The position numbers and the translations under genes are program-made. Shown one piece after another: positions 1,781-32,239 of a stretch of DNA of 32,239 nucleotides. Location of the stretch: contig JAUVIB010000001.1 in the NCBI GenBank assembly GCA_030592985.1, positions 1-32,239 of the forward strand, read 5' to 3'. Each line of letters starts with the position of its first letter. Position 1 is the first letter of the stretch. The DNA is from Calditrichaceae bacterium (GTDB taxonomy: Bacteria > Calditrichota > Calditrichia > Calditrichales > Calditrichaceae). The notes under the pieces were generated by a model. The model saw only the letters and a program-made list of their open reading frames with translations. It had not been told where the DNA came from and searched no databases.

Positions 1781-1783
1781 ACC

Positions 1784-3113: not shown

Positions 3114-3114
3114 A

Positions 3115-5781: not shown

Positions 5782-5886
5782 TTATACCTCAAACTCTATT
5801 TTGTGGATGCAATATCAGTGTTCCAATTTTTTCCCATTAACTGCATCTAATATGCATTTTTACAATCATCTATATTTTATAGAGGC

Positions 5887-7131: not shown

Positions 7132-7153
7132 ACTTTTTGAAATTCCTCCAAAA

Positions 7154-7606: not shown

Positions 7607-7622
7607 AGAATACCTATATAAC

Positions 7623-7647
7623 AAAAAAAAGTGGGTTCGAGCCCACT
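7623..7647 (-). terminator. Intrinsic-terminator-like hairpin plus U8 tract inside the rimP-nusA leader (candidate attenuator)
   Basis: The minus strand reads AAGUGGGCUCGAACCCACUUUUUUUUG. The stem pairs 7630-7635 with 7642-7647 and the T-run covers 7629-7623. It ends about 17 nt before the rimP ATG and lies downstream of the predicted promoter. Confidence 0.7.
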
Positions 7648-14544: not shown

Positions 14545-15135
14545 ATGATATTTTTTTTGATGCATAACCATACCTCTGGCGTAAATCCGGAGAACTGGGT
14601 TGATCTTTATGCTGACTCATTATATCGATTTGCCATTTTAAGAATAAATGATAAAAATTTAGCACAAGATTTAGTTCAGGATACTTTTTTATCAGCTTTA
14701 AAAAGCTTAAATAAATTCAAACAAAAGAGTACTGTTCAAACCTGGCTTATAACTATTTTAAAACATAAAATTGTTGATCATTATAGAAAATCCTTTACCG
14801 ACGATGAAAATGATACGTTTTCGACTTCCTCCAACGGCGATTTAAATGATTATTTAGAAAATGGAATGTGGAATACAGAGAAAGCCCCACGAAAATGGCA
14901 TAAAACGGCTGATGATATATTTGAAGAAAAGGAATTTCTGGAAACATTACATCAATGCCTGTCATTACTTCCTGAACAATCCAGGAAAGTTTTTTCTTTA
15001 AGAGAAATTGATGGAATGAAATCAATAGAAATATGTAAGGAATTAAATATTTCAACGTCCAATTTATGGGTGCTACTGCATAGAGCTCGTAATGGATTAA
15101 GGAAATGTATTGAAAAAACATGGATGGCGCCATAG
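14545..15135 (+). CDS. ECF-type RNA polymerase sigma factor (sigma-70 group 4)
   Basis: Region 2 reads LYRFAILRINDKNLAQDLVQDTFLSALKSLNKF...TWLITILKHKIVDHYRK. Region 4 reads LPEQSRKVFSLREIDGMKSIEICKELNISTSNLWVLLHRARNGLRKCIE. The start may instead be the ATG at 14560. Confidence 0.9.
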   Translation: MIFFLMHNHTSGVNPENWVDLYADSLYRFAILRINDKNLAQDLVQDTFLSALKSLNKFKQKSTVQTWLITILKHKIVDHYRKSFTDDENDTFSTSSNGDLNDYLENGMWNTEKAPRKWHKTADDIFEEKEFLETLHQCLSLLPEQSRKVFSLREIDGMKSIEICKELNISTSNLWVLLHRARNGLRKCIEKTWMAP

Positions 15136-15200
15136 CGCGAAATTAATTAATAGAGTGAGATTCCTTTACAAGTTAAAAGAATAAGAGCAGTAGTTAAATT

Positions 15201-15521
15201 ATGAAAAAGATAGTACATAAAATAAATATGGGTTTAATGATGCTGATCGCAATGGGAACTCCATCCTGCGAAATTATCGGCAGAAAAATTTCAGAATCAT
15301 TTGACCGCCCATTAACCATAAAAGAGCGCATTCAGATAAAAATCCATTTATTAGGGTGTGTATTTTGCTTACGTTATAGAGATCAGCTTATCAAACTGCA
15401 TCAAATGGCTTCAAAATTAGCAGATGGGTTTGAGCAAAACAAACAAGATGAAATAAAACTTGATCCTAATATTAAATTAAAAATTAAAGAAAAAATAAAG
15501 ACCCATCATTCTCCCTCATAG
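15201..15521 (+). CDS. Small soluble ZAS-type (zinc-binding) anti-sigma factor
   Basis: It lies immediately downstream of the ECF sigma gene. It carries an HxxxCxxC motif (HLLGCVFC, nt 15345-15368) and a Cys 26 residues upstream (nt 15267-15269). No C-terminal TM segment is evident. The true start may be an internal Met at 15237 or 15252. Confidence 0.75.
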   Translation: MKKIVHKINMGLMMLIAMGTPSCEIIGRKISESFDRPLTIKERIQIKIHLLGCVFCLRYRDQLIKLHQMASKLADGFEQNKQDEIKLDPNIKLKIKEKIKTHHSPS

Positions 15522-17405: not shown

Positions 17406-18812
17406 ATGAGCGATACCTCTTTGCTGCAATTAAAAGACGATAGACGAATATATATATTAGACACGAATGTTCTTCTTCACGACCCTTCCGCCATTTTCCG
17501 GTTTGATGAGCATATTGTGTTAATTCCCCTTTCGGTTATCGATGAAATTGATGGTAAAAAAAACGATCCTATTATCGGATACAATGCACGGGAGATTAGT
17601 TCCAAACTGGAGCAATTAATAAATCGACGACCTGAGGATAAAATTGACATTCCTATCCCAAACGGGAAGAAGGGATTCATTCTTTTGATTCATGGATACG
17701 TATCAAATAATTTCCCTAAAGAATTATCCCTTACATACAAGGACAATATCATACTTTCACAAATCGTCGGACTTAAAGAGGCCTTTCCGCACAGAGAATT
17801 CATCTTTGTTACTAAAGACCGTAACCTGCGTATTAAAAGTATTGCTCTTGAAATTAATTCTGAGGATTACCAACATGATAAAATTTCCGATGAATACCTG
17901 GCAAGCTTTTTTCAGCCTCTTACTGAAATTCAATTAGATGAAGAAGAGATTAAATCTATTTTTGCATCTCAAAAAAGTGAAAATTGGGATGGGCCCTATA
18001 AAAAGAAATGGCATTTAAGAGAAAATGAGGGAGTTGCATTATTTGACCCCAATAATCATTTTTTTGGAATGGGAATCCGAAAGAGTAATCGTCTGAAATA
18101 TTTTGATTATCACTCAACCAAAATTCTCAGTTATTCTTCTAAAGTGATAGACCCACAATACGAATACAATTTTGAACAGGCTGTGTGTATGCAACAAGCT
18201 ATGGATGATGATATTAAAGTTCAGATTATTATCGGCAGAGCGGGAACAGGTAAAACTCACATTGCCATGGGTGCTGCATTGGAAAAAGTTTTTAAAGAAA
18301 GGAAATACGACTCTATAAAACTTATTAAACCCATTATCACAAAAAGTCGGCTGGGAGAAGATGTTGGATTTTTACCAGGCTCAATGAAACGTAAATTGCT
18401 GCCAAAAATGCGGCCGTTTATCGATAAGCTTCGCCTGTTCACCAAAGAGGGAGAAGAGGAAAATAGTTATAAAAAGTTGTTAGATTCCGGTATTATCGAA
18501 ATAATGAATTTAGCCGATGTTCGGGGTACCGATCTATCTAATGCTTTTGTCATTTTCGATGAAGCCCAAAATGCGAATCCTTTTCAAATGCGTACCTTGG
18601 GGACCAGACTTGGTGAAAATACAAAGTTGATTGTTTTAGGCGACCCGACTCAAATTGACAGCATTTATCTTGACAAATACAGCAATGGACTTATTAATTT
18701 ATATGAAACTTCATTAAAAAAGTCCTCTGATTTTATTGCCCAGATTTGTTTAGTGCAAATGGTTCGTTCTTACACTTCAAAATGGTTCGAAGAATCTTTA
18801 AAATCAAAATAA
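17406..18812 (+). CDS. PIN domain / PhoH-like ATPase fusion (YlaK-like)
   Basis: The N-terminal PIN domain reads YILDTNVLLHDPSAIF...LIPLSVIDEID. The C-terminal PhoH P-loop domain carries GRAGTGKTH and a Walker B (VIFDEAQN), plus LGDPTQID. Confidence 0.85.
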   Translation: MSDTSLLQLKDDRRIYILDTNVLLHDPSAIFRFDEHIVLIPLSVIDEIDGKKNDPIIGYNAREISSKLEQLINRRPEDKIDIPIPNGKKGFILLIHGYVSNNFPKELSLTYKDNIILSQIVGLKEAFPHREFIFVTKDRNLRIKSIALEINSEDYQHDKISDEYLASFFQPLTEIQLDEEEIKSIFASQKSENWDGPYKKKWHLRENEGVALFDPNNHFFGMGIRKSNRLKYFDYHSTKILSYSSKVIDPQYEYNFEQAVCMQQAMDDDIKVQIIIGRAGTGKTHIAMGAALEKVFKERKYDSIKLIKPIITKSRLGEDVGFLPGSMKRKLLPKMRPFIDKLRLFTKEGEEENSYKKLLDSGIIEIMNLADVRGTDLSNAFVIFDEAQNANPFQMRTLGTRLGENTKLIVLGDPTQIDSIYLDKYSNGLINLYETSLKKSSDFIAQICLVQMVRSYTSKWFEESLKSK

Positions 18813-18821
18813 TCACTCAAA

Positions 18822-19907
18822 ATGAACCAAATTATAAACATTAATTCCTTTCATAAAAACTTGCTCAGTTGGTTTGATAATCACGCTAGAATATTACCGT
18901 GGAGACAGAATCCTCACTGGTATAAAACCTATCTTTCCGAATTTATGCTTCAACAAACTCAGGTTGATCAGGTTTTACCTTATTTTCTGAAATTTTACCA
19001 TAAATATCCGGACATTTACGCGCTTGCCAATTTAGAAGAACAAGAGATATTAAGGCAATGGGCCGGGCTGGGATATTATTCAAGAGCGAGAAATCTACGT
19101 AAAGCATCCATAAAAATAGTAAAAAATTTTAACGGAAATTTCCCCGAAACAATTAAAGATGCCTTAACTCTTCCCGGAATAGGAATCTATACTGCCCATG
19201 CAATATTATCAATTGCTTTTAATAAACCGTATGCTGTTGTAGATGGAAATGTTAAAAGAGTAATAAGCCGTCTTTTTACCATAAACGAGGAGATCACCTC
19301 TATAAAAGCATTAAAAAAGATTACTCCTATCTGCGATTTCTTGTTAAACAAAAAATATCCTTCAAAACACAATGAAGCTCTTATGGAATTGGGAGCAACA
19401 ACCTGCACACCAATTAATCCCGATTGTCAAAGTTGTCCTGTTAATTTATTCTGTAAAGCAAATCAAGATAATGCTGTACACCTATTTCCTGTCAGAATAC
19501 CGCGGAAGGCTAAGCGTAATGTATTTTATTATACATTTATTATAAAACATAATGAATATTTTTTATTAATTAAAAGAGAAGCAAAGGGTTTACTTGCCTC
19601 AATGTGGGAATTTCCATCTTTAGAGGGAATTGAAAAGGGTTATTCACAGAAAAAACTGCTCAAATTTATTACTAACGACTTAGGTATCAATGGGAAAATA
19701 GACCATATTTATAAAAGTATAAAACATCAATATACACATCTGTCAGCGAGCTACACCCCGGTTAAAATTACAGCTGATTCTAAGAAGCAAACATTTGAGA
19801 TGTTTCCTGACTGGAAATGGATAAAACCTGGGGAACTGTCCCAATATCCTATTCATACGGCACATAAAAAGATAACTCGAAATTTAGAAATTGAAACCAA
19901 AGGATAG
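18822..19907 (+). CDS. mutY: A/G-specific adenine DNA glycosylase
   Basis: The motifs are LPWRQNPHWYKTYLSEFMLQQTQV, GLGYYSRARNL, the HhH LPGIGIYTAHAI, VDGNVKRV, and the 4Fe-4S loop C-x7-C-x2-C-x5-C (CTPINPDCQSCPVNLFC). The C-terminal domain is NUDIX-like. It starts 9 nt after the PhoH-like gene. Confidence 0.93.
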   Translation: MNQIININSFHKNLLSWFDNHARILPWRQNPHWYKTYLSEFMLQQTQVDQVLPYFLKFYHKYPDIYALANLEEQEILRQWAGLGYYSRARNLRKASIKIVKNFNGNFPETIKDALTLPGIGIYTAHAILSIAFNKPYAVVDGNVKRVISRLFTINEEITSIKALKKITPICDFLLNKKYPSKHNEALMELGATTCTPINPDCQSCPVNLFCKANQDNAVHLFPVRIPRKAKRNVFYYTFIIKHNEYFLLIKREAKGLLASMWEFPSLEGIEKGYSQKKLLKFITNDLGINGKIDHIYKSIKHQYTHLSASYTPVKITADSKKQTFEMFPDWKWIKPGELSQYPIHTAHKKITRNLEIETKG

Positions 19908-22538
19908 ATATCCGATTTCTTTGCCGGCAAGTGTCCTGCCAAAAGCAAACTTTAGCGGACCTAAGAAAGTATTAAACCCAATGCAAGCCCCGAAGGCTGC
20001 TTCCATATCAGCTGTAGTAAGGAGCAGAGTCGGCTCCTGCCATATCCCACCTAAATCATATCTCATCGATAGATATGTCTCCTTAAATATACCAAGTGGG
20101 ATTTTCAAACGATATTCCATTGATAACAAGAGCATTTGTTTACCATATAACTCATTTTTCCAATATCCATAAAAATTATCTATTCCACCCATTCTAAAGT
20201 TTTCTGAAAAAGGCAATGTCTTATCGCCAATACCGAGATGAGCTCTTCCATGCCATGTATGAATAGATTTGAAAGACAAATATCTCTCAAGATGAATCAT
20301 TGCCTTTGTATATCCTTCCTGACTGTTTAAAAGTATATCACTACCACTTTCAAACAACCAGTAAAAATAAGCTCCATTTGTGGGGAATGCACGTTTATTA
20401 CGTCCATCCGTTATAGATTTAAAAGAAATTGTATGTAAGTCTAATATCCGCTTTTTATTGAAATCTCCGGAATAGGCTTTATCTTCTACATTTTCTACAC
20501 GAAATTCTCCAATAATCTGTCCCAAACGAAATAATTGAAAGCCCAATTGTAATTTTATTCCAGTGCGCTTCTCTGAATATTGCCCGATAGTTTGGCCATC
20601 CATAAAAAAAGGATTTATTTCAGCGCTATAATATCCAAGTGCATTAATAGTCAAATATGTTTTAAAAATTCGGTCATTCCGAATACTTATACCATAAAAA
20701 TCATCTAAAGTACCAAAGCGACCGATAAGTGTTGTTTTAATTCCATTTCCAAGAAAATTTTGATCCGTCAACGCCAGGTAGAGTTGCGATTTTCTGTCAT
20801 TATCAATTTTACCTCCAATTTTCATTCGATAATGAGATTTTTCTTTTACATTTACCCTAAGAATATATTTGTTGTTTTTCTTGACAACATTTATGCCAAC
20901 ACGTTCAAAAAGGCCGGATGAATAAACATTCTGTACACCACGGTTAACAACTTTCCAATCAAACACTCTATTCTCGACTGCCCTAAATTCTCGTTGTATC
21001 ACATATTTTTTTGTTCGCTCATTGCCGGATATCTCAATTTTCTCAATTAACCCTTCATCAATATAAATTGAAAGTATACCTCGCTCACTATCAATTTGAA
21101 TATCCGTAAATTGCATAAGTGTATTATTATGTTCATAATAGATATTCCGAATTCGTTTTAGGTCGGATTTTAATGAATCAACATTAATCCGCGCGCCTAT
21201 TTGTAATGAGATATTATTTTTCAGAATCTGTAAATCAACAGTATGAACACCAATTAGATTAATATTTTTTAATACAGCACAGAACTCACTGCTTATTTTA
21301 ATATTTGCTTTACCATGCGTTGTATCGATAATAGCTGTAACTTTTTTATACCATCCTGTCTTAATCAAACTATCTAAAAAAGTATCGATGTTATAATATG
21401 ACAAACTATCACCTCTTTGTATCCATTGTTCTGCTTTTACCTCTTCGGGGACATCAACGGAAGAGATTAGCCACTTAGATAATTTATTTTTCGTCGAAGG
21501 ACTATTAATAAATTCATCAAGGACTAATATTTCTGCTTGCGCGGCTTTTTCACCTGCATCAATCAGTTCACCAATTTGAGAAAAATCAGTATTATTAATA
21601 CCTGAAATTTGCGGACGAATTAAAATATCCGCGTTTCTTTTTTTCCATTCATAACAAGTTTTGGACATTATTGTTGTTACTTGGTCGGCGATTTCCCAAG
21701 GAAGATTTAATTCATTTTTCTTACGTAACACAGCACTCATATCACTTGCAATAACTATGTCCGCCCCCATATCAGATACAACATCAACCGGTAAATTATT
21801 AACCAATCCACCATCTACCAAGAGGAGAGAATCTATTGCAACCGGTGAAAACAAGAGGGGTATTACCATCGATGCATTTATACTCTCCGGTAAGCTTCCA
21901 TCTTTAAGTATGACCATTTTCCCACTTATTATATCTGTTGCAACCACTCTGAATGGTATTTTCAAATCGTCAAAACTATTTTTCACCTGGTACGGTGCTT
22001 TAATAAATAATTCTGTAATTATATTTAATAATTTTTGTCCGGGGGTTAAAGCATCAGGGATATATGGCTTTAATCCTTTAAAACCAATGGATAACAAATA
22101 GCGGTCATACTCTGCTTTTTGCTCCATAAAAAGCGATGTCCTTTCGGTTTTATCGCTGAATATAGTATTCCAGTCAATAGTTTTGAATATTTCTTCAATT
22201 TGCTCAGGATCATAACCGGCTGCATACAATCCACCCACAAAGCTTCCGATACTAGTTCCGGCTATAAAGTCAATTGGTATTTGATGTTTTTCAATGTATT
22301 TTAACACACCAATATGGGCCGTTCCTCTGGATCCACCACCGCTAAGAGCCAATCCGATAGTAGGTTGGTTTTTTATTTTAGGATTGGATATAACAATGAT
22401 TTTACTATTCTTTAATTCAATTCTTTTGCTTAAAATAATGGATTCGGCAGTAATTTCTTGTATAAAAAGAAAGAAATAAAAAATTACGAAAAAATGCTTG
22501 ATTGTATTTCTCCTGAAAATAGATTTAACAACTTTCAT
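19884..22538 (-). CDS. Patatin-like phospholipase fused to POTRA and an Omp85/BamA-type beta-barrel (PlpD-like, type Vd architecture)
   Basis: It has a signal peptide, the oxyanion motif SGGGSRG, the nucleophile motif GTSIG and the catalytic Asp in VDGGLVNNLP. A POTRA-like segment follows (IEKIEISGNERTKKYVIQREF). The C-terminus is a beta-barrel with alternating aromatic residues that ends in ...LSFGFNF. Confidence 0.85.
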   Translation of the reverse strand: MKVVKSIFRRNTIKHFFVIFYFFLFIQEITAESIILSKRIELKNSKIIVISNPKIKNQPTIGLALSGGGSRGTAHIGVLKYIEKHQIPIDFIAGTSIGSFVGGLYAAGYDPEQIEEIFKTIDWNTIFSDKTERTSLFMEQKAEYDRYLLSIGFKGLKPYIPDALTPGQKLLNIITELFIKAPYQVKNSFDDLKIPFRVVATDIISGKMVILKDGSLPESINASMVIPLLFSPVAIDSLLLVDGGLVNNLPVDVVSDMGADIVIASDMSAVLRKKNELNLPWEIADQVTTIMSKTCYEWKKRNADILIRPQISGINNTDFSQIGELIDAGEKAAQAEILVLDEFINSPSTKNKLSKWLISSVDVPEEVKAEQWIQRGDSLSYYNIDTFLDSLIKTGWYKKVTAIIDTTHGKANIKISSEFCAVLKNINLIGVHTVDLQILKNNISLQIGARINVDSLKSDLKRIRNIYYEHNNTLMQFTDIQIDSERGILSIYIDEGLIEKIEISGNERTKKYVIQREFRAVENRVFDWKVVNRGVQNVYSSGLFERVGINVVKKNNKYILRVNVKEKSHYRMKIGGKIDNDRKSQLYLALTDQNFLGNGIKTTLIGRFGTLDDFYGISIRNDRIFKTYLTINALGYYSAEINPFFMDGQTIGQYSEKRTGIKLQLGFQLFRLGQIIGEFRVENVEDKAYSGDFNKKRILDLHTISFKSITDGRNKRAFPTNGAYFYWLFESGSDILLNSQEGYTKAMIHLERYLSFKSIHTWHGRAHLGIGDKTLPFSENFRMGGIDNFYGYWKNELYGKQMLLLSMEYRLKIPLGIFKETYLSMRYDLGGIWQEPTLLLTTADMEAAFGACIGFNTFLGPLKFAFGRTLAGKEIGYLSFGFNF

Positions 22539-22914: not shown

Positions 22915-25900
22915 TTAATTATCATTTTCCAACGTCTTAAAATATTTTTCAATTAATTTTTTATAATCCTGACTATAACCTTCTTTTAAGGCACGGTTAA
23001 GCGCTTCTTCAAGGTTTTTTTTATCCATGTCATAGATATTTTTTATCTCACCAGGATCATTAGTATTGTATTGTTTAGCAATTTCTGCTTTTCGTTTTTT
23101 TGAATATTCCCGTTGCTGTGCAGATCTTTGCGCATCAAGCAACCTGGAAAGGATTTGCCGTTGTCTTTCAATGGTTTTACGATTTACATTATTTTTAATT
23201 AAATCCTGAATAACCTCTTCCATTTCTCCGGCAACATCACCGATCCGGCCCAACATATCATTCCTGTTTCCCATTTCACCACTCATTTTTTCAAGTGCCT
23301 GCTGCAAAGCTCTTTGTTCGGCTGCTAAGCGTCCCGCCATTTGCTGCTGCTGTGATGGCAGCATTCCGCCTGGTTTGTTACATAAAGTCATCGATTGCTC
23401 ATTTATCTGGCCTTGTCCGTCTGCCATTTGTGTTAATTGCTCCATAAATTCTTCAAAGCCTGTTCCCGAAGAAGATTTTGATAATTTCCCCTTAGAACTT
23501 TGCATTTTCATAAAGCTATCATTTAACCCTGCCATAGCATTCTGCTGATCCCTGGCGGCTTGAGAACCTTGTCCTCTTTCTGTTAAGCCTCTCAAGCTTC
23601 TTTGCATTCCGGTCTGGGCTCTTGCCATCGACTTGCTTATTTTGGGGTCTATAAAAAATGTTTTTTTGGATAACTCAATCACATCAGAAATGGTATGTTG
23701 AAAATTAGATAATATTTCCCCCTGTTTCTCCGCCAATTCCCGTTGGCGAATACTATAATCCGATGAACGATTTGTTTCTGTATATAAATTTTCCTGACCT
23801 TTCGACAGCTCCAGCATTTGTTTCATAATTGAAAGGATCTCTTTTTTAACATCAGCTTTGCCTTGCTCATTAATTTTTTTTTGTGCTTCCTCGAGAATTT
23901 TCTGTAAACTCTTCATATCCTGTTGTACTATATCAGAATTTTTCTGAGCATTATTCAGATCACTATTTGCTATATTTTGTTCAATCTGTTTAATCCCTTC
24001 CTGCATTTTTCCGCTTTGCAGCTTATCATCGGCTCTGTTTAAGAGTTTTTTACTTTCGTTAAATTTATTCAAACGAGGGTTTTTCATAAACTCCTGTAAA
24101 TCTTTATGAAGTGACTGTAAATTTTCTTCCTGTTGTTTTTGCATATTATATAAATTCTTCAAATCTTTTTCACTTGGGGATTTTTCTTTTGATTTTTCAG
24201 ATATTTTCTTCTGTTGCTCGGTCATTGATTTAGATTTTTGTACCAAACGATCCATCTGCTGTTCGAACTGAACCTGCTTTAGCAATTCCATTGTCCGGTT
24301 AATACTCTCGTTAAAGGCTTCCTGGTTAAGTTTAAATTTTCCAAGGGCTTTCTGCACATCATTTGGATTACTTTTATCAATTTGTTTTTGCAATTGTTTC
24401 ATAGCTTCTAACAATTCAGGCGAGGCTAAATCTTTAAACATCTCTTGTAATTTCATATATTTTTCTAAAACTTCTTCACTAATTAAATTGTTTTTATCCA
24501 ATTTTTCTATCATCTTCTCAATATCTTTTTGGACTTTATCAACTTTATTATGCAGTTCTTTCTGCTGTTCAAGAGATTGTTCTAATTTTTGTTTGGCCTG
24601 CCAGTCGAGTTTTTTATTTTTTTTAAGCTCTCTATCTATCTCTTCAAGCTTCTTTTTCAAATCTTCTGATTGTTCTTGTACATCTTTCATCTCATCAATA
24701 TTTTCATTTTCATTTTGGGTAAAGGAATCAAATATATCATCTATAGACGGAAAACGGATATAATAAGTTCTGCTCTTTCCAATTCCTGGTCCCGAAACAT
24801 TATTATTATCATGTATGCGCGCAAAATATTTTATACTTTCACCAAAAGCCAACGGGAGCTTATTAAAATCCCATAAATAATATATTTCCTGACGGTTTTC
24901 CCTGTTATTGTTTAACATCAATCTTACTTTTTTTTCTTGTTCATTATTAGAGCTATCCTCATGCAATATTTGATAAACAAGAAATGCTTTTGTCAAGCCG
25001 AAATCATCTTCAGCCTTAATTGTTAACGGCAGTTCAATATCTGGTGTGACTTCTATATCTTCCCCCGGTTTAGTAATATCAACAAATGGTATATTATCAG
25101 GTAATGTTTGAAGGCGATATTCTATCGGATTGATATTAATTTGCCCTGAAGTGTCTTGTAAAACTATTTTATAACGATCATCATTAATCAGGTAGAATGA
25201 ACCGTTTGCTGCCTTCCCTTTAACTATAAGCGGTATTTTTTTCCCTGATTGAAATTGAATTTCAGCAAATTTTAAAATCTTATTAGCGGTTAGTTTTAGT
25301 TCTATTAATGACCCTGGAAGAGACGAGATATCACCAATATTCCGATTAAGAAACTCTTTCGGTAGAGATGTATAAGACGGTGGCGTGATCGAAACATCAA
25401 ATTTCTGTGCAGAAGGAGGGATTAAAACTTTAACGTGATATACTTTAGAAATAATTTCCTCTCCATACTTCCTTTTATTCAAAACATTTACCAAAATATG
25501 ATAATCAAATGATTTTTTTACAGCAGATATTTTTCCTAGATAATATTCATTTTCTTTTACTAATTCAATGGTATTTCTTTTATCTTTATCCAGAATTACT
25601 TGCCCGCCGGTTATCACAGGTCCATTATAACGAACTCTAAAATTAATTATACTTCCTTTAATAACATCAGCATTACCAGGCATAACATCAAACTCGTAAG
25701 CTGAGATTTTTAAATAATCATTTAACGGATTTAAAAGCCTTTTACTTGAATGTATAATAATATCACTTTGGAAAAAGAACAAAATCAAGCTACCGATAAT
25801 TAACGGTATATAAAGCGAGGGTTTCGGAAGAAAATCATGAAGTGTTATTTTCTGTTTAAAATCAATGTCACCATAGCGCTGCAATGTCTGAATGATTGCA

Positions 25901-26298
25901 GCGCGACTTAGGCTTTGAGAAATATTCTGCTCATCATCACTTATCATTAAATTATAAGTATTAGCCAACTCGTCTCTGATTTCAGGAAATATTTTACCGA
26001 TTTCAAGAGCAATAACGGTGAAATCTGAATTATGATTAAGCTTGAAAAACATTTTAATATTTTGGAAAAAATATTTATTTAGGATGATAATAATAATGCT
26101 AAAATTAATTACAAAAAAACTAACGCGTGTTATTTTAGAAAAATAGAAAGTATGGTCAGCAATAGTAAGACTGAACCATGAAGAAGTTAGTAGCAATAAG
26201 AGAATGAAAAAATTGCCAAAAAATTGATATAATAATTTTCGACGGGCGTAGTAATATAATTTTAAAACAAGTTTTTCTTGTTTTTTATCCATAATCAA
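22915..26298 (-). CDS. Giant membrane-anchored coiled-coil protein (DUF4175-like by recollection; function unknown)
   Basis: The 1127-aa product has N-terminal TM spans and a beta-rich region of roughly 330 aa (e.g. FVDITKPGEDIEVTPDIELPLTIKAEDDFGL). About 400 aa of K/E/Q-rich heptad-like sequence follows, then a Q/M/G-rich segment and a conserved-looking tail (RQRQILSRLLDAQRS...YKKLIEKYFKTLE). The start is TTG at 26298 or ATG at 26292. Confidence 0.6.
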   Translation of the reverse strand: MIMDKKQEKLVLKLYYYARRKLLYQFFGNFFILLLLLTSSWFSLTIADHTFYFSKITRVSFFVINFSIIIIILNKYFFQNIKMFFKLNHNSDFTVIALEIGKIFPEIRDELANTYNLMISDDEQNISQSLSRAAIIQTLQRYGDIDFKQKITLHDFLPKPSLYIPLIIGSLILFFFQSDIIIHSSKRLLNPLNDYLKISAYEFDVMPGNADVIKGSIINFRVRYNGPVITGGQVILDKDKRNTIELVKENEYYLGKISAVKKSFDYHILVNVLNKRKYGEEIISKVYHVKVLIPPSAQKFDVSITPPSYTSLPKEFLNRNIGDISSLPGSLIELKLTANKILKFAEIQFQSGKKIPLIVKGKAANGSFYLINDDRYKIVLQDTSGQININPIEYRLQTLPDNIPFVDITKPGEDIEVTPDIELPLTIKAEDDFGLTKAFLVYQILHEDSSNNEQEKKVRLMLNNNRENRQEIYYLWDFNKLPLAFGESIKYFARIHDNNNVSGPGIGKSRTYYIRFPSIDDIFDSFTQNENENIDEMKDVQEQSEDLKKKLEEIDRELKKNKKLDWQAKQKLEQSLEQQKELHNKVDKVQKDIEKMIEKLDKNNLISEEVLEKYMKLQEMFKDLASPELLEAMKQLQKQIDKSNPNDVQKALGKFKLNQEAFNESINRTMELLKQVQFEQQMDRLVQKSKSMTEQQKKISEKSKEKSPSEKDLKNLYNMQKQQEENLQSLHKDLQEFMKNPRLNKFNESKKLLNRADDKLQSGKMQEGIKQIEQNIANSDLNNAQKNSDIVQQDMKSLQKILEEAQKKINEQGKADVKKEILSIMKQMLELSKGQENLYTETNRSSDYSIRQRELAEKQGEILSNFQHTISDVIELSKKTFFIDPKISKSMARAQTGMQRSLRGLTERGQGSQAARDQQNAMAGLNDSFMKMQSSKGKLSKSSSGTGFEEFMEQLTQMADGQGQINEQSMTLCNKPGGMLPSQQQQMAGRLAAEQRALQQALEKMSGEMGNRNDMLGRIGDVAGEMEEVIQDLIKNNVNRKTIERQRQILSRLLDAQRSAQQREYSKKRKAEIAKQYNTNDPGEIKNIYDMDKKNLEEALNRALKEGYSQDYKKLIEKYFKTLENDN

Positions 26299-26301
26299 AT
26301 T

Positions 26302-26985
26302 TTAATTTAATAAAGCATAAAGGAAAATATTAACAGCCATTTTAAGAGCTTGCATCCGGATAGGTTCCGGGTCATTATGGATCTCAACGTTTTCACAACC
26401 ATCACTGATATCTGTATTGAAACTATAAAAGCATACTAAACGATCATTTAAAATTAATCCATATCCATGGGACGGACCTCCTGCATGTTCATGGATTTTT
26501 GGCACACCCTGATTGAAGTGATAATAATAGTGATAAATAGGATGGGAAAAAGGGAGTTCAACAAACTTTAATTCGGGAAATACTTTTTTCATTTCTCTTC
26601 TGAAGGAGGCATCCATTCCATAATCATCATCTGCAAATAAAAATCCGCCGTTGGATAAATACTCGCGTAAAATTTTTACCTCTTCATTTGTAAAACGGAT
26701 ATTACCATGACCTGCTATATAGGCAAATGGATACAAATTAAATTCAGGATCACCTATCTTGTATGCATCCTCTTTTATTCCAACCTCAATGGAGAATTCT
26801 CTCTCCACTTTATTTAAGATATTTATCCAGGTTGTCTTATTTCCATACCAATCACCGCCGCCGCCATAATGTATGCGAACCGGAACAATTGGCTGCGCAT
26901 TACTGGTACCCATTATTATCAGTAAAAGAAAAAGATATTTATTCCAATTTCTTATATGACAAATTGTATTAACCAAAACAGTCAT
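26302..26985 (-). CDS. Secreted DUF4159-like protein
   Basis: It has a signal peptide (LFLLLIIMGTSNA/QP). The motifs HYGGGGDWYGN, YIAGHGNIRFTNEEVKILREYLSNGGFLFADDDYG and PFSHPIYH match my recollection of DUF4159. Its stop lies 3 nt before the giant ORF. Confidence 0.65.
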   Translation of the reverse strand: MTVLVNTICHIRNWNKYLFLLLIIMGTSNAQPIVPVRIHYGGGGDWYGNKTTWINILNKVEREFSIEVGIKEDAYKIGDPEFNLYPFAYIAGHGNIRFTNEEVKILREYLSNGGFLFADDDYGMDASFRREMKKVFPELKFVELPFSHPIYHYYYHFNQGVPKIHEHAGGPSHGYGLILNDRLVCFYSFNTDISDGCENVEIHNDPEPIRMQALKMAVNIFLYALLN

Positions 26986-27012
26986 TGTATTCTGCTCAAT
27001 TTATCTGATTAC

Positions 27013-27043
27013 AAAAAAAAACCCGTAATGTTATCATTACGGG
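27013..27043 (-). terminator. Rho-independent terminator closing the TPR / fusion / STAS / DUF456 operon
   Basis: The plus strand shows an A9 run (27013-27021), then a perfect 9-bp stem CCCGTAATG (27022-27030), loop TTAT, and CATTACGGG (27035-27043). On the minus strand this reads as a hairpin followed by U9, 28 nt after the DUF456 stop. Confidence 0.85.
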
Positions 27044-27070
27044 ATAATAAATTAATTACCGGTTTTAATG

Positions 27071-27571
27071 TTACACAATCTTTGAAGCCAGCATAACCGC
27101 CACAGTAACTGCACCTACCGTTTTAATTGATAATCCTGCCAATTTGCCAATCAATACACCAATGGATGCTCTTATACTTCGTTTTATATCTGAACTGTGT
27201 AAATATTCGACAAGAAAAGTACCAACGATTACGCCAATTACTGATCCTACAAGCGCTCCGATAATCGGTGTAACGAAAGCACCACTTATGGCTCCGATGA
27301 CTCCTATAACAATTCCACCGCTAATACCCCATTTTGATGCACCATATTTTTTAGAAGTAAGAACTATTAAGAGGAACTCAATCGCTTCGACTACCAGCAC
27401 AATAGCAAATAACAACAAGATATAAGAGAAAGAAAAAGCTTCAAACTTATTAATTAAACCATAAACCAATCCACTAAGTGCAATCAGCGAATTTCCAGGA
27501 ATCCCCAAAAAATTCGATATTGTCCAAAAGCTGATTAGTGCAATAAATAAAACATCAACCAAAACATCCAT
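27071..27571 (-). CDS. DUF456 family small membrane protein
   Basis: The 166-aa protein has about four TM spans. It carries GIPGNSLIAL...SKKYGASKWGISGGIVIGVIGAISGAFVTPIIGALVGSVIG, the glycine-zipper-rich pattern typical of DUF456. Confidence 0.7.
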   Translation of the reverse strand: MDVLVDVLFIALISFWTISNFLGIPGNSLIALSGLVYGLINKFEAFSFSYILLLFAIVLVVEAIEFLLIVLTSKKYGASKWGISGGIVIGVIGAISGAFVTPIIGALVGSVIGVIVGTFLVEYLHSSDIKRSIRASIGVLIGKLAGLSIKTVGAVTVAVMLASKIV

Positions 27572-27583
27572 TTTCTACTCACT

Positions 27584-28285
27584 TTAATTAACATTAGCAA
27601 ATTCAAATCTTTTAACTTTGCTATTCAAATTAAGTTCCACCAATTTTGAGCGCACTTCAAACCATCCCATTTTGGTATAACCATAAATAGCTGAATTAAG
27701 TATTCTTTTTATTTTTAAAGCGCCTACAATTGGATCTGTCTTAATAATCATTTTTATTTTGTCATTTACCGGTAGACTTGCCGGATCAATATTTTTCTCT
27801 TCTGTTTTGCTATCATCCATTTGCTCGGTTGGTTCTGTACCCGTTGCAAATTGCTCTACCGGTGGCTGCGATACTGGTTCTGATTTAGGTAATGTAATTT
27901 CTTTGGCAACTGATTTTCCTGCTGCTTCCAGCATTTCAAATTTATTTACAGCTTCATCAACAGTATCATACACATCAAGTATATGATGAAATTCAAGCAG
28001 TTCAAATATCTCATAAACATCCGGAACCATGCGAACCAATTTCAGATCTCCGCCATTTTCTCTTATAGATTTAATTTCACTGATGAAAATACCCCATCCT
28101 GCACTGCTGATATAATCAACATTTCCTAAATCAACAATGATAAAAAACCGTCCCTGTTTTAATAAAGCGCCTAGTGCCCGCTCTAATTCCGAAGAGGTGG
28201 TTGTATCAATATATCCTCCAACTTTTATAATGGATATATGATTTCTACTACCGGCAATTTCAGTTGATACTTGAATTCCTTCCAT
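27584..28285 (-). CDS. STAS-domain anti-sigma-factor antagonist (SpoIIAA/RsbV-like) with a C-terminal HTH-like extension
   Basis: The STAS core is IIKVGGYIDTTTSSELERAL...IIVDLGNVDYISSAGWGIFIS, with the phosphorylatable Ser in the DYISSAG context. An acidic/Pro-rich linker and a module of about 50 aa follow. The ATG at 28285 lies 5 nt after GGAGG, whereas the track start at 28288 is a TTG. Confidence 0.85.
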   Translation of the reverse strand: MEGIQVSTEIAGSRNHISIIKVGGYIDTTTSSELERALGALLKQGRFFIIVDLGNVDYISSAGWGIFISEIKSIRENGGDLKLVRMVPDVYEIFELLEFHHILDVYDTVDEAVNKFEMLEAAGKSVAKEITLPKSEPVSQPPVEQFATGTEPTEQMDDSKTEEKNIDPASLPVNDKIKMIIKTDPIVGALKIKRILNSAIYGYTKMGWFEVRSKLVELNLNSKVKRFEFANVN

Positions 28286-28319: not shown

Positions 28320-31300
28320 CTATTTTTCAGGAGTATCGATTAACGATTTCATGGTAATCTTACTTTTTAAAAAGTCTTTCTGAGCTAATTTTTTTCTAAT
28401 TATTTCGAACTGATCATTTTTATTTTCTGAAGATGTTCGTTTTATATTTTTTAATTGATAATTTATTAAACCAATTTCATTTATAACACGAAAAACAACC
28501 TCATAACCTATTAATTTATTGATTTCTTTGATATAATTCAATAAAAGTTTTATCTTTTCATTTAAAAACGCAGAATCATATTTATCATAATCTTCCGAAA
28601 TCAAATTTATACACTGTTGAGTTTGTTCAATAATTTGCCTTGTGTCTTTCAATTCTTTTAAATCGGGCGACGTAATAATATCGCTTAAAATGAGCTTTAT
28701 TTTTTGAATATCTTTTTTGGGAATATCATTGCTATCATAGTCCTTTGAAACAAATTCCAAGGCTTTTAAATTCCCTTTAATAGAAGAATAAAATTTATCG
28801 ATGTTACCTGTGTTTATTTCCTGGACAACCCGATCTAACAGTTGATTCTTTATTAAATTTGGCTGAAAACTATCTTGAACATTTTTATTTTCAGCACTTT
28901 TATTTATTATCGCAGTTTTTTGGGTTTTATCGCTTTTTTTCTTTTTCTGCTTTGTTAGTTCTTTGACGGTTTTTACTTGCTTTATCTTTGATTTTTTCTT
29001 TTTTGTTTTTGCAGACGGTTTGTCCTTTTTTTGACTCTTTTTGCCGGTAAGTGTTTTACTCTTTTTAATATTATCAGTTGCAGCTATAGGTTTTCTTATG
29101 GGAATTTTAGTTTCCCCATCCTCTTTCTTTGGCGAAAAAGAAGTTATGATTGTTCTTTTATCATCACCACCGGCTAAAACTGGTTGTTTAAAACGAGAAT
29201 CTACCGTTTTACCACTTCTCTTTTCTATTTCACTTTCTGAAGATTCAAAATCGAGAATAACTTTTCCGTCTAATGTAAGCAGCGGCGTCCCCGGCTGCTT
29301 AATATGTTTCTTTCTCCCACCTTTAATAATGTAACGTTCTCTCTTTTCATGTGTATTCATTTTCAGCTTAACAAGCTCGTTATAAAGTCTGCGCTCATCA
29401 ATTTCAACAAAACCATATTTTTCAGTATTTAATTCACCACATATTCTTTTTGTACCAAATTTCGGGTGATTCCTAATAATGTCAAATATCTTCGTTTTTA
29501 CCTCTAGAGATATATGTTTTTTTTCTATAAGATCTTGCCGAGATAAATACTCTTTTAACCCATCAAGACCACGTTGATCCATAATATTTTTATATTTATA
29601 ATAATGATATTGTGAGACTCGCATAAGTTCACAAGCTTCTTTTACCGTATAACCACTATCTACAAGGCTAAATAACTCCTTCTGAACATTATATACAACA
29701 TCGCCATGCATCAATTTTTCTTTAACAGCTACAAAAGTAATATCATCATTTTGTGGAGCGCCTCTGGTAAAGCCGGCGATATCATCCTGAATACTTTTAA
29801 CAAATTCACCCACATCCATATGTGAGTCACGTCGAATTGCTTCAAGGAACCTTTCATCACGGTATAACTCACGATTAAGGTTCATGGCTTCGGTAATACC
29901 ATCTGTATAAAGGACCAAGATATCATCCTCACGCAAATGGATAGAATCCGATTCAATTTTCATATCAAATAAATTTATATCCGGCAACTGAATACCGACA
30001 GGAAAACCAGTAGGATTCAAATAATATGTCTGCTTATTTGATCCCCTGAAAAGTATCATGGGATTATGTCCTGCACTGGCATAATGAATAATTCTATTAC
30101 GAGAATCCAGAATCATATAAAACATGGTAACAAACATACCACGTTTCATATCATCCGTAACAAAACGATTAACTTTAGCCAATACATCAGCTGGATTTTT
30201 ATTTCCCCTTGATTCGAGACGTAATGCGGTTCTAATCATTGTCATAATCATTGACCCCGGCACTCCTTTACCGGATACATCTGCGACACAGATACCGATA
30301 GTATCTTCATCAATTGTCACAAAATCAAATAAATCACCACCCACTTCTTTAGCTGCTTCATAATAGGCGCCAATGTCATAGCCCTCCACACTGGGGAAAT
30401 CGCTGGGAAGCAGCATGTGCTGAATTTCCTGAGCGACCTGCAGCTCTTTTTGTAACCGTTGCTGTTCCATCAGGGTTACCTGGGCTTCCCTGAACTTATG
30501 GGTCATTTGATTAAAAGCCTCAGCGATCTCACCGATTTCATCAGTTGTATCAATATCAATTTCATCCTGATCTACTTTACCATGGACAACTTGGCGTACC
30601 CACTCTGCCAAACCGTGAAAAGGAAGCATAATACGACTAATAAGATAGAAGAACCCTAAATAACTAAGTACCAGTATTAACAGAACAATTATTAAAATTT
30701 TAATTCTATATTTAAAACTCTGATCATTAATCACATATTCAGGCACACGAACATGGACATAACCGAGGACAGCGCCGGTTCCTGTAAGACTCTGATGTAT
30801 CGCTGCACTTAACTCATAAACATCAAGGGTGTCTCCTATGGCATACTTGTAAGCTGTCACTTGCCCAAGACTATCTACAAATTCATAATTATCCGGCAAT
30901 TTGTATACACCAAGTTGATCGACATTCTCTAAATCGCTTCGCGCAACCATTTTGTTATTTGAAGAGCTAATGGAAACATCATAAATAATATCGGGTTTGC
31001 TATTTTTTAATGCGTATACTTTCTCAAAAAGATTTAAATCTGACTCATTTAAAATATCATCTATTACATATTCAGATAATGTTTCACATTCAGTAGCTGT
31101 CCTTCCTAAAATATCATTTCGAATATTTGAATTGGCATTAATAAAAAGCGGTACAAATACAATACCAATAATCAGCGTTAATATGACGGATACAATATAG
31201 GTGTATTTCATGCGCATGGAAAGATCATTCCATTTATGCATCAACATACTTTCATCAGTTGTATCTCTATTTTTCGTTAGCCTGAATTCATTACCATGTT

Positions 31301-31685
31301 CTGTGATTGTATAGTTTATATCATCCATAAGCTTACGCATCATTAAGATGCCAAGCCCACCCTTTTTACCAATATCAATATATTTTTCTAAATCGGGAGT
31401 ATTCGCCTGACGTGGGTCAAAACTTATTCCCTGATCGATAACTACTATAGTCAGGCTTAATCGCCTAACAATTGCCTTTAATGTGATTTCACCGTTTTTA
31501 ACATCAACATATCCATGGCGAATAATATTGGTGCAAGCTTCATCAACTACCAGCTTAAATGAGTTAATAACTTTTTCGGAAAAGCGATATTTTCTCCCAA
31601 TATGCTCCACAAATTCCCTTATCTGAAGCAGATAACTCATTTGTGCTGGGATCGTAATTTCTTCTTTTCTTACATTTCTAAACAT
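28320..31685 (-). CDS. Multidomain partner-switching protein: RsbW-type Ser kinase / TM / sensor loop / TM / HAMP / PP2C (SpoIIE) phosphatase / HTH modules / poly-Lys tract / helical C-domain
   Basis: Kinase boxes: VVDEACTNIIRHGY, VIDQGISFDP, KKGGLGILMMRKLMD (nt ~31272-31658). TM spans: ~31140-31208 and ~30633-30704. HAMP: DEIGEIAEAFNQM (~30471-30632). PP2C motifs: EVGGDLFDF, ADVSGKGVPGS, LYTDGITEA, NDDITFVAVK (~29718-30443). HTH-like segments: VKEACELMRVSQYHYYKYK and HPKFGTKRICGELN (~29340-29693). Lys-rich tract: ~28911-29333. The ATG directly abuts the stop of the upstream TPR gene (TAAATG). Confidence 0.85.
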   Translation of the reverse strand: MFRNVRKEEITIPAQMSYLLQIREFVEHIGRKYRFSEKVINSFKLVVDEACTNIIRHGYVDVKNGEITLKAIVRRLSLTIVVIDQGISFDPRQANTPDLEKYIDIGKKGGLGILMMRKLMDDINYTITEHGNEFRLTKNRDTTDESMLMHKWNDLSMRMKYTYIVSVILTLIIGIVFVPLFINANSNIRNDILGRTATECETLSEYVIDDILNESDLNLFEKVYALKNSKPDIIYDVSISSSNNKMVARSDLENVDQLGVYKLPDNYEFVDSLGQVTAYKYAIGDTLDVYELSAAIHQSLTGTGAVLGYVHVRVPEYVINDQSFKYRIKILIIVLLILVLSYLGFFYLISRIMLPFHGLAEWVRQVVHGKVDQDEIDIDTTDEIGEIAEAFNQMTHKFREAQVTLMEQQRLQKELQVAQEIQHMLLPSDFPSVEGYDIGAYYEAAKEVGGDLFDFVTIDEDTIGICVADVSGKGVPGSMIMTMIRTALRLESRGNKNPADVLAKVNRFVTDDMKRGMFVTMFYMILDSRNRIIHYASAGHNPMILFRGSNKQTYYLNPTGFPVGIQLPDINLFDMKIESDSIHLREDDILVLYTDGITEAMNLNRELYRDERFLEAIRRDSHMDVGEFVKSIQDDIAGFTRGAPQNDDITFVAVKEKLMHGDVVYNVQKELFSLVDSGYTVKEACELMRVSQYHYYKYKNIMDQRGLDGLKEYLSRQDLIEKKHISLEVKTKIFDIIRNHPKFGTKRICGELNTEKYGFVEIDERRLYNELVKLKMNTHEKRERYIIKGGRKKHIKQPGTPLLTLDGKVILDFESSESEIEKRSGKTVDSRFKQPVLAGGDDKRTIITSFSPKKEDGETKIPIRKPIAATDNIKKSKTLTGKKSQKKDKPSAKTKKKKSKIKQVKTVKELTKQKKKKSDKTQKTAIINKSAENKNVQDSFQPNLIKNQLLDRVVQEINTGNIDKFYSSIKGNLKALEFVSKDYDSNDIPKKDIQKIKLILSDIITSPDLKELKDTRQIIEQTQQCINLISEDYDKYDSAFLNEKIKLLLNYIKEINKLIGYEVVFRVINEIGLINYQLKNIKRTSSENKNDQFEIIRKKLAQKDFLKSKITMKSLIDTPEK

Positions 31686-32239
31686 TTATTTGTCACCTTC
31701 ATCTTCTATACGGCTCTTAGCATCTTTAATGGCATCCAATACTTTTTTATTATAAGGATAATCAACAAGAATTTCCTGCCATATTTTAATGGCTTCTAAA
31801 TATTTACCCTTTACAAATTCATTTACACCAATTAACCATTTACGCTCTACAGCCGGACTCATTTTTTCCTGGCCTACGGTTTCAATCTTTGCCCTTTCAA
31901 GACCACTCTGTGCAGTTTGATTCGAAGGATCTACTTGTAATACTGCTTGGAAAATGCTGCTTGCTTTATCATATTCACCCAATTCCAGCAGCATCAACCC
32001 TTCCTGTATCTGCTCATTTACTTTATATCTTTGAGCCAACAAATCAACCTCTCGTTGGAAAACCTGATCACTACTTCCCAACATTCTCACTTCAGCGATA
32101 AGACGTAAAGCTTCAGAATAATTTTGCCTATTAAATTCCTGCCTGCTTCTGACAAGCAGAGAATTTATCTCCTCTTGCAGCCTTCTGTTGGTAGTTGCAA
32201 TTGAGCTTTTAACCGTCTCATTATTCGGATCACGCTCCA
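31686..32239 (-). CDS. TPR-repeat protein, C-terminal part; the 5' end lies beyond the window end
   Basis: TPR-like helices are present: GEYDKASSIFQAVLQVDPSNQTAQSGLERAK and GKYLEAIKIWQEILVDYPYNKKVLDAIKDAK. The track starts it at a GTG (32090). I translated the frame by hand from 32091 to 32239 and found no stop (...NYSEALRLIAEVRMLG...), so the gene most likely runs off the window. Confidence 0.7.
   Translation of the reverse strand, partial: ERDPNNETVKSSIATTNRRLQEEINSLLVRSRQEFNRQNYSEALRLIAEVRMLGSSDQVFQREVDLLAQRYKVNEQIQEGLMLLELGEYDKASSIFQAVLQVDPSNQTAQSGLERAKIETVGQEKMSPAVERKWLIGVNEFVKGKYLEAIKIWQEILVDYPYNKKVLDAIKDAKSRIEDEGDK

Follow-up and report, generated by a model that had tools for sequence, protein, structure and literature searches.

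Within a stretch of 32,239 nucleotides from the Calditrichaceae bacterium contig JAUVIB010000001.1 (assembly GCA_030592985.1; hereafter the window), an original prediction made from the letters of the sequence had singled out an uninterrupted frame of 1121 aa. ORF (open reading frame) calling confirmed it as a single ORF without interruption at 28320..31685 on the minus strand. The encoded protein carries a serine kinase and a PP2C-type phosphatase on either side of a membrane-spanning sensor and continues into a pair of helix-turn-helix (HTH) modules; a STAS protein is encoded downstream of it. On balance we consider this fusion to be probably a membrane-embedded bifunctional partner-switch enzyme that works like SypE, in which a transmembrane (TM) helix, a single-Cache (sCache) domain, a second TM helix and a HAMP domain form the sensor instead of a receiver (REC) domain. 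In the usual textbook view, partner-switching modules regulate sigma factors and consist of three separate proteins. The domain identities, catalytic and acceptor residues, topology, synteny and paralogy described below rest on sequence and structure prediction.

The N-terminal part of the fusion matches Pfam HATPase_c_2 at aa 12–138 (3.8e-26, 92 bits, cutoff 27.4), and its best match among solved structures is RsbW (6m36, E = 3.6e-16). NCBIfam also returned RsbW for this domain (E = 4.5e-21), with 74.9 bits against an equivalog cutoff of 145; the RsbW and SpoIIAB scores were all far under their equivalog cutoffs. Behind the sensor a HAMP domain (aa 348–399, 36 bits, cutoff 25) is followed by a SpoIIE domain (aa 460–655, 1.4e-49, 169 bits, cutoff 25). 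We aligned 119 homologs and found E49 and N53 of the N box, D84-x-G86 of the G1 box and G109-G-L-G112 of the G2 box of the kinase to be invariant. The same holds for D451, D595-G596 and D647-D648 of the phosphatase, and D469 is present in 118/119 sequences. Judged by these residues both catalytic sites are intact-looking, in agreement with the earlier description of a SpoIIAB/RsbW-type HATPase with N, G1 and G2 boxes and of a PP2C domain with all four Asp motifs. The mean fraction of the commonest residue in this alignment reaches 0.83–0.92 in the kinase and 0.88–0.94 in HAMP and PP2C, compared to 0.67–0.73 in the HTH region and 0.42–0.55 in the periplasmic loop; it is about 0.25 in the gap-rich aa 841–960 and 0.40–0.52 in the last 160 aa. 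Together with the STAS protein considered below, the locus comprises an RsbW-type kinase, a SpoIIE-family phosphatase with its metal-binding Asp residues and a nearby STAS domain with an acceptor Ser.

A hydropathy scan of the whole fusion gave exactly two hydrophobic spans with peaks at aa 164–182 and 330–349. With two TM spans only, kinase and HAMP-PP2C should be located on the same, cytoplasmic side. The scan and the HAMP match agree with the two spans around a loop of about 145 aa and the HAMP-like linker that had been noted before. A sequence search of the loop against the PDB gave nothing significant, and the loop of the window protein has no Pfam sCache match of its own. An AlphaFold2 model of aa 180–328, built with 31 family sequences, reached a pLDDT of 90.2 and a pTM of 0.85, and Foldseek against the PDB placed it among PDC/single-Cache sensors. 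The best match was WalK/YycG (5is1, E 4e-5, TM score about 0.65); WalK, KinD, DctB and CitA all matched with probability 1.0 and TM scores of 0.62–0.68, and further matches were LuxQ and the periplasmic domain of Chlamydia RsbU (6mab). In more distant relatives Pfam sCache_3_2 is found over its cutoff. The modelled loop is thus an extracytoplasmic single-Cache/PDC sensor domain. Pfam, catalytic motifs, hydropathy, AlphaFold2 and Foldseek all support the previously proposed membrane-anchored arrangement of kinase and PP2C flanking an extracytoplasmic sensor.

The putative substrate is encoded by the gene following the fusion. The stop codon of the gene upstream, which encodes tetratricopeptide repeats (TPRs), abuts the ATG of the fusion, and 34 nt with a AAAGGAGG site precede the STAS gene. 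Its product matches Pfam STAS with 1.9e-19 (69.8 bits, cutoff 22.6), and the core (aa 1–117) is 97–100% conserved in 120 homologs. The motif VDYISSAGWG aligns with VSYMDSTGLG of RsbV and with the equivalents in SpoIIAA and TM1442; this alignment puts Ser61, invariant in 120/120, at the phospho-acceptor position. The adjacent STAS substrate of the original prediction was accordingly recovered with its aligned phospho-Ser, although at 233 aa it is more than a plain STAS domain. Beyond an acidic, variable linker it ends in a basic domain of about 65 aa, which shares 35% identity with the second HTH module (HTH2) of the fusion (BLASTP, E 6e-7). Hidden Markov models (HMMs) of HTH2 and of the STAS extension gave reciprocal matches in several loci (1e-7 to 1e-14), and an exhaustive profile search with the C-terminal part of the fusion also caught a 243-aa STAS protein via its HTH2-like domain. 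HTH2 and the extension both have a median net charge of +8, the STAS core one of about -10. By these comparisons the extension is a paralog of the enzyme's HTH2.

Searching the protein databases with the fusion yielded 3079 matches. The best 120 of them were nearly all full-length (about 1040–1290 aa) with the same Pfam trio, two being shorter partial sequences; the named sources among these 120 were Calditrichota, and one sequence belongs to Caldithrix abyssi DSM 13497, whose genome is complete. The exhaustive HMM search with the C-terminal module returned only 236 matches (E <= 1e-3) in 1.84 billion cluster representatives. Scans of the profile matches and of genome loci revealed a constant core of kinase, TM, sCache, TM, HAMP, PP2C and HTH pair. 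The HTH pair always starts around residue 650–680, and the two spans flanking the sensor are the only TM spans in all variants. What follows the HTH pair differs: there is no tail in proteins of 767–870 aa, a linker with a helical bundle in Calditrichota including the window protein, a long tail ending in TPR arrays in proteins of 1665–2253 aa and three fused STAS domains in proteins of 1420–1511 aa (P0315, L006, L011).

The TPR arrays of L004:8001-12998 (P0302), P0343 and P0371 end long cytoplasmic tails with no additional TM; in Calditrichota the TPR array sits instead in the PorV-like protein encoded upstream. In L006:8001-12536 and L011:8959-13218 the three STAS domains are located behind the HTH pair, each with a phospho-Ser motif, and separate STAS genes are found nearby. 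Going by their domain content, these two variants hold sensor, kinase, phosphatase and substrates in one polypeptide. In addition, 80 loci listed from species-representative genomes were scanned with generic PP2C motifs, which amounts to a sample, not a census. HAMP and the HTH pair are found in each ORF among them whose kinase precedes PP2C; of these ORFs, that of L009 alone lacks sCache. Most of the other loci listed contain ordinary RsbU-like genes, the rest reverse-order PP2C-kinase fusions; the reverse-order fusions L038, L071 and L078 are without an HTH pair. Carriers labelled outside Calditrichota are an Ignavibacteria metagenome-assembled genome (MAG; L012) and a Spirochaetota-labelled MAG (P0365). 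Two non-Calditrichota relatives carry a gene for a ParA/MinD-type ATPase (AAA_31/CbiA) immediately behind the fusion gene (L006:12533-13303, L012:11819-12556).

Enzyme and STAS gene belong to a larger unit with the order giant ORF (about 1400–4700 aa), ORF of ~610–680 aa, enzyme and STAS. C. abyssi and close relatives show this order, and so do relatives with only 29–40% identity; the 10 kb upstream of the fusion were taken up by the giant gene and the following gene throughout. An apparent 2.3-kb gap in L089 proved to be more of the giant ORF. The protein of about 630 aa consists of an N-terminal outer-membrane barrel of the PorV/PorQ family and C-terminal TPRs, with NCBIfam PorV_fam (NF033709) scores of 140.8, 125.8, 137.6, 123.9 and 103.4 bits in L001, L002, L004, L009 and L012 (cutoff 90). 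At the C-terminus of the giant protein the type-A sorting domain of type IX secretion systems (T9SS), TIGR04183 (Por_Secre_tail), was detected with 25.0, 24.4 and 32.4 bits in L004, L005 and L006 (cutoff 23), and under the cutoff in L009 (22.0), L012 (21.5) and L002 (17.4). Similarity to the C-terminal domain of PorU, of PorZ or of another T9SS cargo was also seen in all six giant proteins. In the orthologous loci the two genes therefore qualify, by their profile matches, as a putative T9SS cargo and its cognate PorV/PorQ-family barrel. The deep synteny, together with the Rosetta-stone-like fusions of TPR arrays and STAS domains to the enzyme, argues for a module dedicated to the giant cargo and its PorV-like partner, and we regard such a functional tie as quite likely. 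In L088:18162-22907 a 577-aa ORF without Pfam match, three small ORFs and a 305-aa TPR ORF take the place of the PorV-TPR gene, which may reflect fragmentation or rearrangement; ahead of the giant gene this locus encodes a second Big_1 protein of 1980 aa.

No sigma factor gene was found in the operon or its flanks, neither in the window nor in 10 or more related loci followed up to about 27 kb upstream. A homology search with the giant protein did not bring up that of C. abyssi; the region before the giant gene was examined in three other Calditrichota contigs (L087, L088 and L089), and the 10 kb in question contain no sigma factor either. The only sigma gene of the window is the extracytoplasmic function (ECF) factor at 14545..15135, as had been stated before, and the relatives' flanks likewise did not reveal a sigma factor just beyond the window edge.

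Combining these observations, we propose that an extracytoplasmic cue would tip the balance between the N-terminal kinase on TM1 and the PP2C domain, which is connected to TM2 through HAMP. The kinase/phosphatase balance would then set the phosphorylation of Ser61 of the STAS protein encoded downstream, and enzyme and STAS protein, within the four-gene unit, would control production or display of the giant surface protein. By analogy to the role of REC in SypE, we think it rather likely that the sensor regulates kinase and phosphatase reciprocally. Output would not proceed via a cis-encoded sigma factor; it would run via the HTH pair and the HTH2-like domain of the STAS protein, with DNA binding gated by STAS phosphorylation. 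For this last step, which is suggested by the sequence relationships of the HTH modules, we see chances somewhat short of even. Among the possible outputs we rank DNA binding first, protein docking second and sequestration of a sigma factor in trans third.

A DNA-directed output is suggested by the following findings. The region at aa 675–792 matches the NCBIfam profile of the IS481 transposase N-terminus (E 1.2e-9; 38 bits, cutoff 224), and in distant relatives the same region is over the Pfam cutoffs (HTH_28 with 30.5 and 30.9 bits, cutoff 25; HTH_Tnp_1 with 26.4 bits, cutoff 24.1). In an alignment of 16 sequences (A1) the putative recognition helix of the HTH pair retains invariant S, Y, K and K. 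AlphaFold2 of aa 656–1121 predicted helical modules at aa ~661–721 and ~727–790 (pLDDT 75–90), a disordered stretch at ~792–956 (pLDDT 30–45) and a helical bundle at ~957–1102 (pLDDT 70–85). According to Pfam no rve/DDE catalytic domain follows the HTH pair; linker and bundle are found there instead. From these matches the HTH region appears homologous to transposase DNA-binding domains, so that the HTH assignment is supported indirectly. Directly after HTH2 the motif KQPGTPLLTLDG.VI, of which K, P, G, T, P, L, T, D, G, V and I are invariant in A1, has no match among known families and may serve for docking.

The remainder of the C-terminus fared differently. The Lys-rich tract noted in the original prediction is present in the window protein but is specific to its lineage and belongs to a variable disordered linker, whose net charge ranges from -75 to +24 and whose length ranges from 40 to 283 aa across the family. 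This variation in composition and length rules out the poly-Lys tract as a conserved DNA-binding element. For the last ~180 residues, previously described as helical sequence without recognisable motif, the predicted bundle gave CheA P1/HPt as the best Foldseek match in the PDB (probability 0.97–0.99, E 0.4–2.5), alongside generic four-helix bundles. The position equivalent to the phosphorylated His holds Ser in the window protein; across the 119 homologs it is H in 72, N in 39 and S in 5. Since this position varies and the fold match is weak, the bundle was rejected as a true HPt domain. The proposal that poly-Lys tract and C-terminal part serve as output elements had to be given up: the linker is variable, and the tail is replaced by TPRs or STAS domains, or absent, in relatives. 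A fold search of the C-terminal model against a viral library yielded nothing meaningful, and a DnaA match from the PDB sequence search (E 0.012) falls into the helical tail and is likely spurious.

Several points weigh against the proposed enzyme and its DNA-directed output. In the window protein itself Pfam HTH_28, HTH_23, HTH_32 and HTH_29 match aa 673–769 under their cutoffs; for the two transposase-type HTH segments predicted earlier, Pfam thresholds are passed in relatives, by HTH_28 and HTH_Tnp_1. Neither fold nor sequence searches matched the HTH region significantly to a DNA-bound structure: the PDB fold search with the C-terminal model was swamped by the bundle, with a weak match of the HTH pair to the Pax5 paired domain at rank 43, and sequence searches with the HTH region and the A1 profile against the PDB returned nothing significant. 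We detected no conserved operator or sigma-54 promoter upstream of the small-protein gene and the giant gene in L087–L089, and the STAS proteins of L005, L006 and L011 are plain, without the HTH2 extension. The window contains just the TPR tail of the PorV-like gene, and none of the papers searched links Calditrichota with T9SS. Finally, RsbW-type domains can bind a sigma factor from another locus: CrsR and HsbR, which also unite kinase and phosphatase, bind RpoS while rpoS lies outside their operon (PMC6482189).

The output could instead be a protein–protein interaction as in SypA, SiaC and HsbA, with the STAS protein, phosphorylated or not, binding a non-DNA target and the HTH modules and tails docking or scaffolding; we consider this rather unlikely, yet the strongest of the alternatives. 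As candidate targets we name the PorV/TPR protein, the secretion machinery and an enzyme of the diguanylate cyclase or HD-GYP type. Known STAS outputs are indeed protein partners (SiaC-SiaD, HsbA-HsbD and HsbA-FlgM; SypA is counted here too), the tails of the family are protein-interaction modules (TPR arrays, STAS domains, the helical bundle), and paralogous HTH2 domains on enzyme and substrate would suit homotypic docking. The gene context fits as well: in L087 and L089 the 10 kb before the giant gene encode SurA-like peptidyl-prolyl isomerases, a sigma-54-type AAA+ activator, a GAF-GGDEF protein, a TPR protein, a GAF-HD-GYP protein and a small protein, and by analogy to SiaD and HsbD these cyclic di-GMP enzymes could be targets of the STAS protein. 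In L088:1-3872 HD-GYP is missing from the genes found, which are those for GGDEF, TPR and small proteins; the fetched flank breaks off within the GGDEF gene. However, about 14–17 kb separate the cyclic di-GMP genes from the enzyme, and only Calditrichota loci showed them. Homology of the HTH pair to transposase DNA-binding domains, the invariant residues of its putative recognition helix and the strongly basic character of HTH2 and STAS extension also speak against a purely protein-directed output. Among the genes shared upstream of the giant gene (L087:3444-9984, L089:703-7698), the TPR protein has 382 aa and the small protein, which is of unknown type, ~165 aa.

Alternatively, the kinase domain could act as a classical anti-sigma factor in trans, sequestering at the membrane a sigma factor encoded elsewhere until unphosphorylated STAS protein releases it. 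The nearest relative of the kinase domain is RsbW in both the structure and the NCBIfam search, and the RpoS binding of CrsR and HsbR offers a precedent. Nevertheless, we judge this distinctly improbable: the conserved neighbourhood holds no sigma gene in any family member examined, the NCBIfam scores are far under the equivalog cutoffs, and the universal HTH pair and the HTH2-like domain of the STAS protein would be left unexplained. That the architecture is a chimeric assembly, or an RsbU-like gene read through into an insertion sequence (IS) remnant, has next to no probability despite the resemblance of the HTH region to IS481/IS3 transposase N-termini, because more than 120 full-length homologs from independent assemblies including the complete C. 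abyssi genome share the domain order, the HTH region is about 70% conserved at a constant position, no DDE domain follows it and the catalytic motifs are invariant; the assembly artefact considered in the original prediction is thereby eliminated.

Returning to the sensor-enzyme with DNA-directed output, its most detailed version is speculative, and we would give it only a slim chance. The STAS protein would be a phosphorylation-gated output that binds DNA or docks onto an HTH domain, the HTH pair of the enzyme a membrane-tethered operator binder, and sCache would monitor export or surface state of the giant cargo, perhaps via the TPR arm that the PorV-like barrel would extend into the periplasm, with feedback on the cargo operon. 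If this were true, the switched partner would be DNA or an HTH domain and not a sigma factor, and the locus would be the first case of partner switching devoted to type IX secretion, and also the first in which the readout is DNA binding itself.

Table 1. Positions of the fusion gene, its domains and the neighbouring genes in the window
Feature	Position	Strand	Basis and remarks
Whole ORF: kinase, TM, sCache, TM, HAMP, PP2C, HTH pair, linker, helical bundle	28320..31685	-	ORF call, Pfam, NCBIfam, domain scans
RsbW/SpoIIAB-type GHKL serine kinase domain, cytoplasmic (aa 5-145)	31251..31673	-	Pfam, RsbW 6m36 match, invariant N/G1/G2 boxes
Transmembrane helix 1 (aa ~162-184)	31134..31202	-	hydropathy scan
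Extracytoplasmic single-Cache/PDC sensor domain, predicted (aa ~185-326)	30708..31133	-	AlphaFold2, Foldseek; sCache_3_2 over Pfam cutoff in relatives
Transmembrane helix 2 (aa ~327-350)	30636..30707	-	hydropathy scan
HAMP and start of helical connector to phosphatase (aa ~351-405)	30471..30635	-	Pfam HAMP; about 89% conserved
PP2C/SpoIIE-type serine phosphatase (aa 425-656)	29718..30413	-	Pfam SpoIIE, Asp residues
HTH1, HTH_28/HTH_23-type module (aa 661-722), net charge about 0	29520..29705	-	Pfam, NCBIfam, AlphaFold2
HTH2, HTH_32-type module (aa 723-795), basic (+9); paralog of C-terminal domain of STAS protein	29301..29519	-	Pfam, BLASTP, AlphaFold2, HMMs
Conserved post-HTH segment with near-invariant motif KQPGTPLLTLDG.VI (aa 796-840)	29166..29300	-	alignment A1, conservation 0.57, low AlphaFold2 confidence
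Disordered linker, Lys-rich in window lineage only (aa 841-955)	28821..29165	-	pLDDT 30-45; charge and length variation in family
C-terminal helical bundle (aa 956-1110), observed in Calditrichota members only; at most HPt-like in fold, no conserved His	28356..28820	-	AlphaFold2 pLDDT 70-85; Foldseek
STAS protein, 233 aa + stop	27584..28285	-	core 27935-28285; Ser61 codon 28103-28105; acidic linker; basic HTH2-like C-terminal domain 27587-27784
PorV/PorQ-like outer-membrane barrel + TPR gene, 3' end with TPRs only, truncated at window edge	31686..32239	-	open frame to window end; matches 638-aa ortholog of L002
DUF456 (membrane)	27071-27571	-	Pfam; co-directional, 12-nt gap after STAS
DUF4159 (signal-peptide-like N-terminus)	26302-26985	-	Pfam; 85-nt gap
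DUF4175-like TM/coiled-coil protein, 1127 aa	22915-26298	-	Pfam; 3-nt gap

In most of the Calditrichota loci fetched, the DUF456-DUF4159-DUF4175 genes (22915..27571) lie downstream of the module; no more distant relative has them there. At 19884-22538 (-) lies a gene for an 884-aa protein in which a patatin-like phospholipase is fused to POTRA and an Omp85 barrel; its position is kept in C. abyssi and relatives. A housekeeping operon rimP-nusA-infB-rbfA-truB-ribF at 854-7624 (-) indicates a chromosomal, non-mobile context. The window further contains a 499-aa phosphofructokinase with a cyclic-nucleotide-binding domain on its N-terminus, an uncommon regulatory fusion (10813-12312, -), and a 468-aa PIN-PhoH fusion (17406-18812, +) followed by a MutY-like glycosylase (18822-19907). 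A 609-aa GGDEF-EAL protein (12395-14224, -) adjoins the divergent ECF sigma gene (196 aa; 14545-15521, +, including the next ORF); the 106-aa ORF after the sigma gene has no Pfam match and is possibly its anti-sigma factor.

The closest characterised system is SypE/SypA of Vibrio fischeri. SypE consists of N-terminal kinase, REC and C-terminal PP2C, its substrate is the STAS protein SypA, and the system has no known sigma factor (PMC3610818, PMC8256260). SypE and the fusion share an HPK-like serine kinase of ~140 aa at the N-terminus (N52 in SypE, N53 in the fusion), a C-terminal PP2C domain and a regulatory module in between. Both systems have a single STAS substrate with a conserved phospho-Ser and reside in a locus for a cell-surface product, the syp biofilm polysaccharide in one case and a giant T9SS-type cargo in the other. 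The novelty claimed for the fusion therefore has to be restricted: a kinase-PP2C fusion of the same order is precedented by SypE, whereas TM sensor and HTH pair are new. The REC domain of SypE is cytoplasmic and fed by a phosphorelay. In the fusion, which has no Pfam Response_reg match, its place is taken by TM, periplasmic sCache, TM and HAMP, which would make the enzyme itself the membrane sensor. Moreover, SypE lacks HTH pair and tail, and SypA lacks the HTH2-like extension.

Kinase and PP2C acting on a STAS antagonist are also fused in HsbR/HsbA of Pseudomonas aeruginosa and CrsR/CrsA of Shewanella oneidensis. HsbR and CrsR are REC-PP2C-kinase fusions, and outputs of the HsbA type include the non-sigma partners HsbD, a diguanylate cyclase, and FlgM (PMC6482189). 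In contrast to the fusion they have the reverse order, are cytoplasmic and without sensor, HAMP and HTH, and they also bind RpoS. A survey of such systems mentions only REC-PP2C-kinase fusions and sensor-PP2Cs (PMC9239204). SiaA of the P. aeruginosa SiaA/SiaB/SiaC/SiaD system and Chlamydia RsbU are membrane PP2Cs with a periplasmic sensor and HAMP like the fusion, and the output of SiaC is again non-sigma. NCBIfam SiaA (NF038263) aligns with aa 319–654, that is with the TM2-HAMP-PP2C part only (E 9.9e-17; 60.7 bits, cutoff 700). In SiaA and Chlamydia RsbU, however, the kinase is a separate protein and there is no HTH pair. Rv1364c of Mycobacterium tuberculosis unites PAS, PP2C, kinase and STAS, in this order, in one polypeptide, but is cytoplasmic and not known to carry a TM sensor or HTH pair. 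Its combination of phosphatase, kinase and STAS is comparable to the variants P0315, L006 and L011 with three fused STAS domains.

If the HTH pair binds DNA, the fusion would resemble ToxR and CadC in connecting a membrane-tethered periplasmic sensor to DNA without a diffusible phosphorelay. These proteins differ in having an N-terminal OmpR-type winged helix, one TM span and no enzymes, compared to two TM spans and a C-terminal transposase-type HTH pair in the fusion, for which no Pfam Trans_reg_C match was found. With regard to the genomic context, a giant cargo with a T9SS sorting domain directly followed by a gene for a barrel of the PorV/PorQ/PorP superfamily corresponds to known T9SS cargo/barrel pairs, except for the C-terminal TPR array of the barrel in the fusion locus. 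Known T9SS regulation is that by PorXY-SigP (PMC4800418), and none of the papers searched links T9SS or PorV with STAS proteins or partner switching; the fusion module suggests another regulatory route for T9SS cargo. Another envelope-directed, sigma-free precedent is provided by a cyanobacterial module in which HenR and a STAS protein control a glycosyltransferase (PMC13555669).

Compared to the known fusions, the new elements are the TM sensor between kinase and phosphatase, the transposase-type HTH pair with its paralog on the substrate, and the tight linkage to genes for a PorV-like barrel and a giant cargo of the T9SS type. Kinase and phosphatase on either side of a TM sensor would constitute a compact push-pull arrangement in which one ligand-binding event could drive both activities, making this family a good model for how the kinase/phosphatase balance is set. 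The HTH pair and its copy on the substrate point to a non-sigma, possibly DNA-binding readout, of a kind not so far described for STAS proteins. The link to the giant cargo in Calditrichota and uncultured lineages related to them offers a testable candidate for the regulation of huge surface proteins in abundant sediment bacteria.

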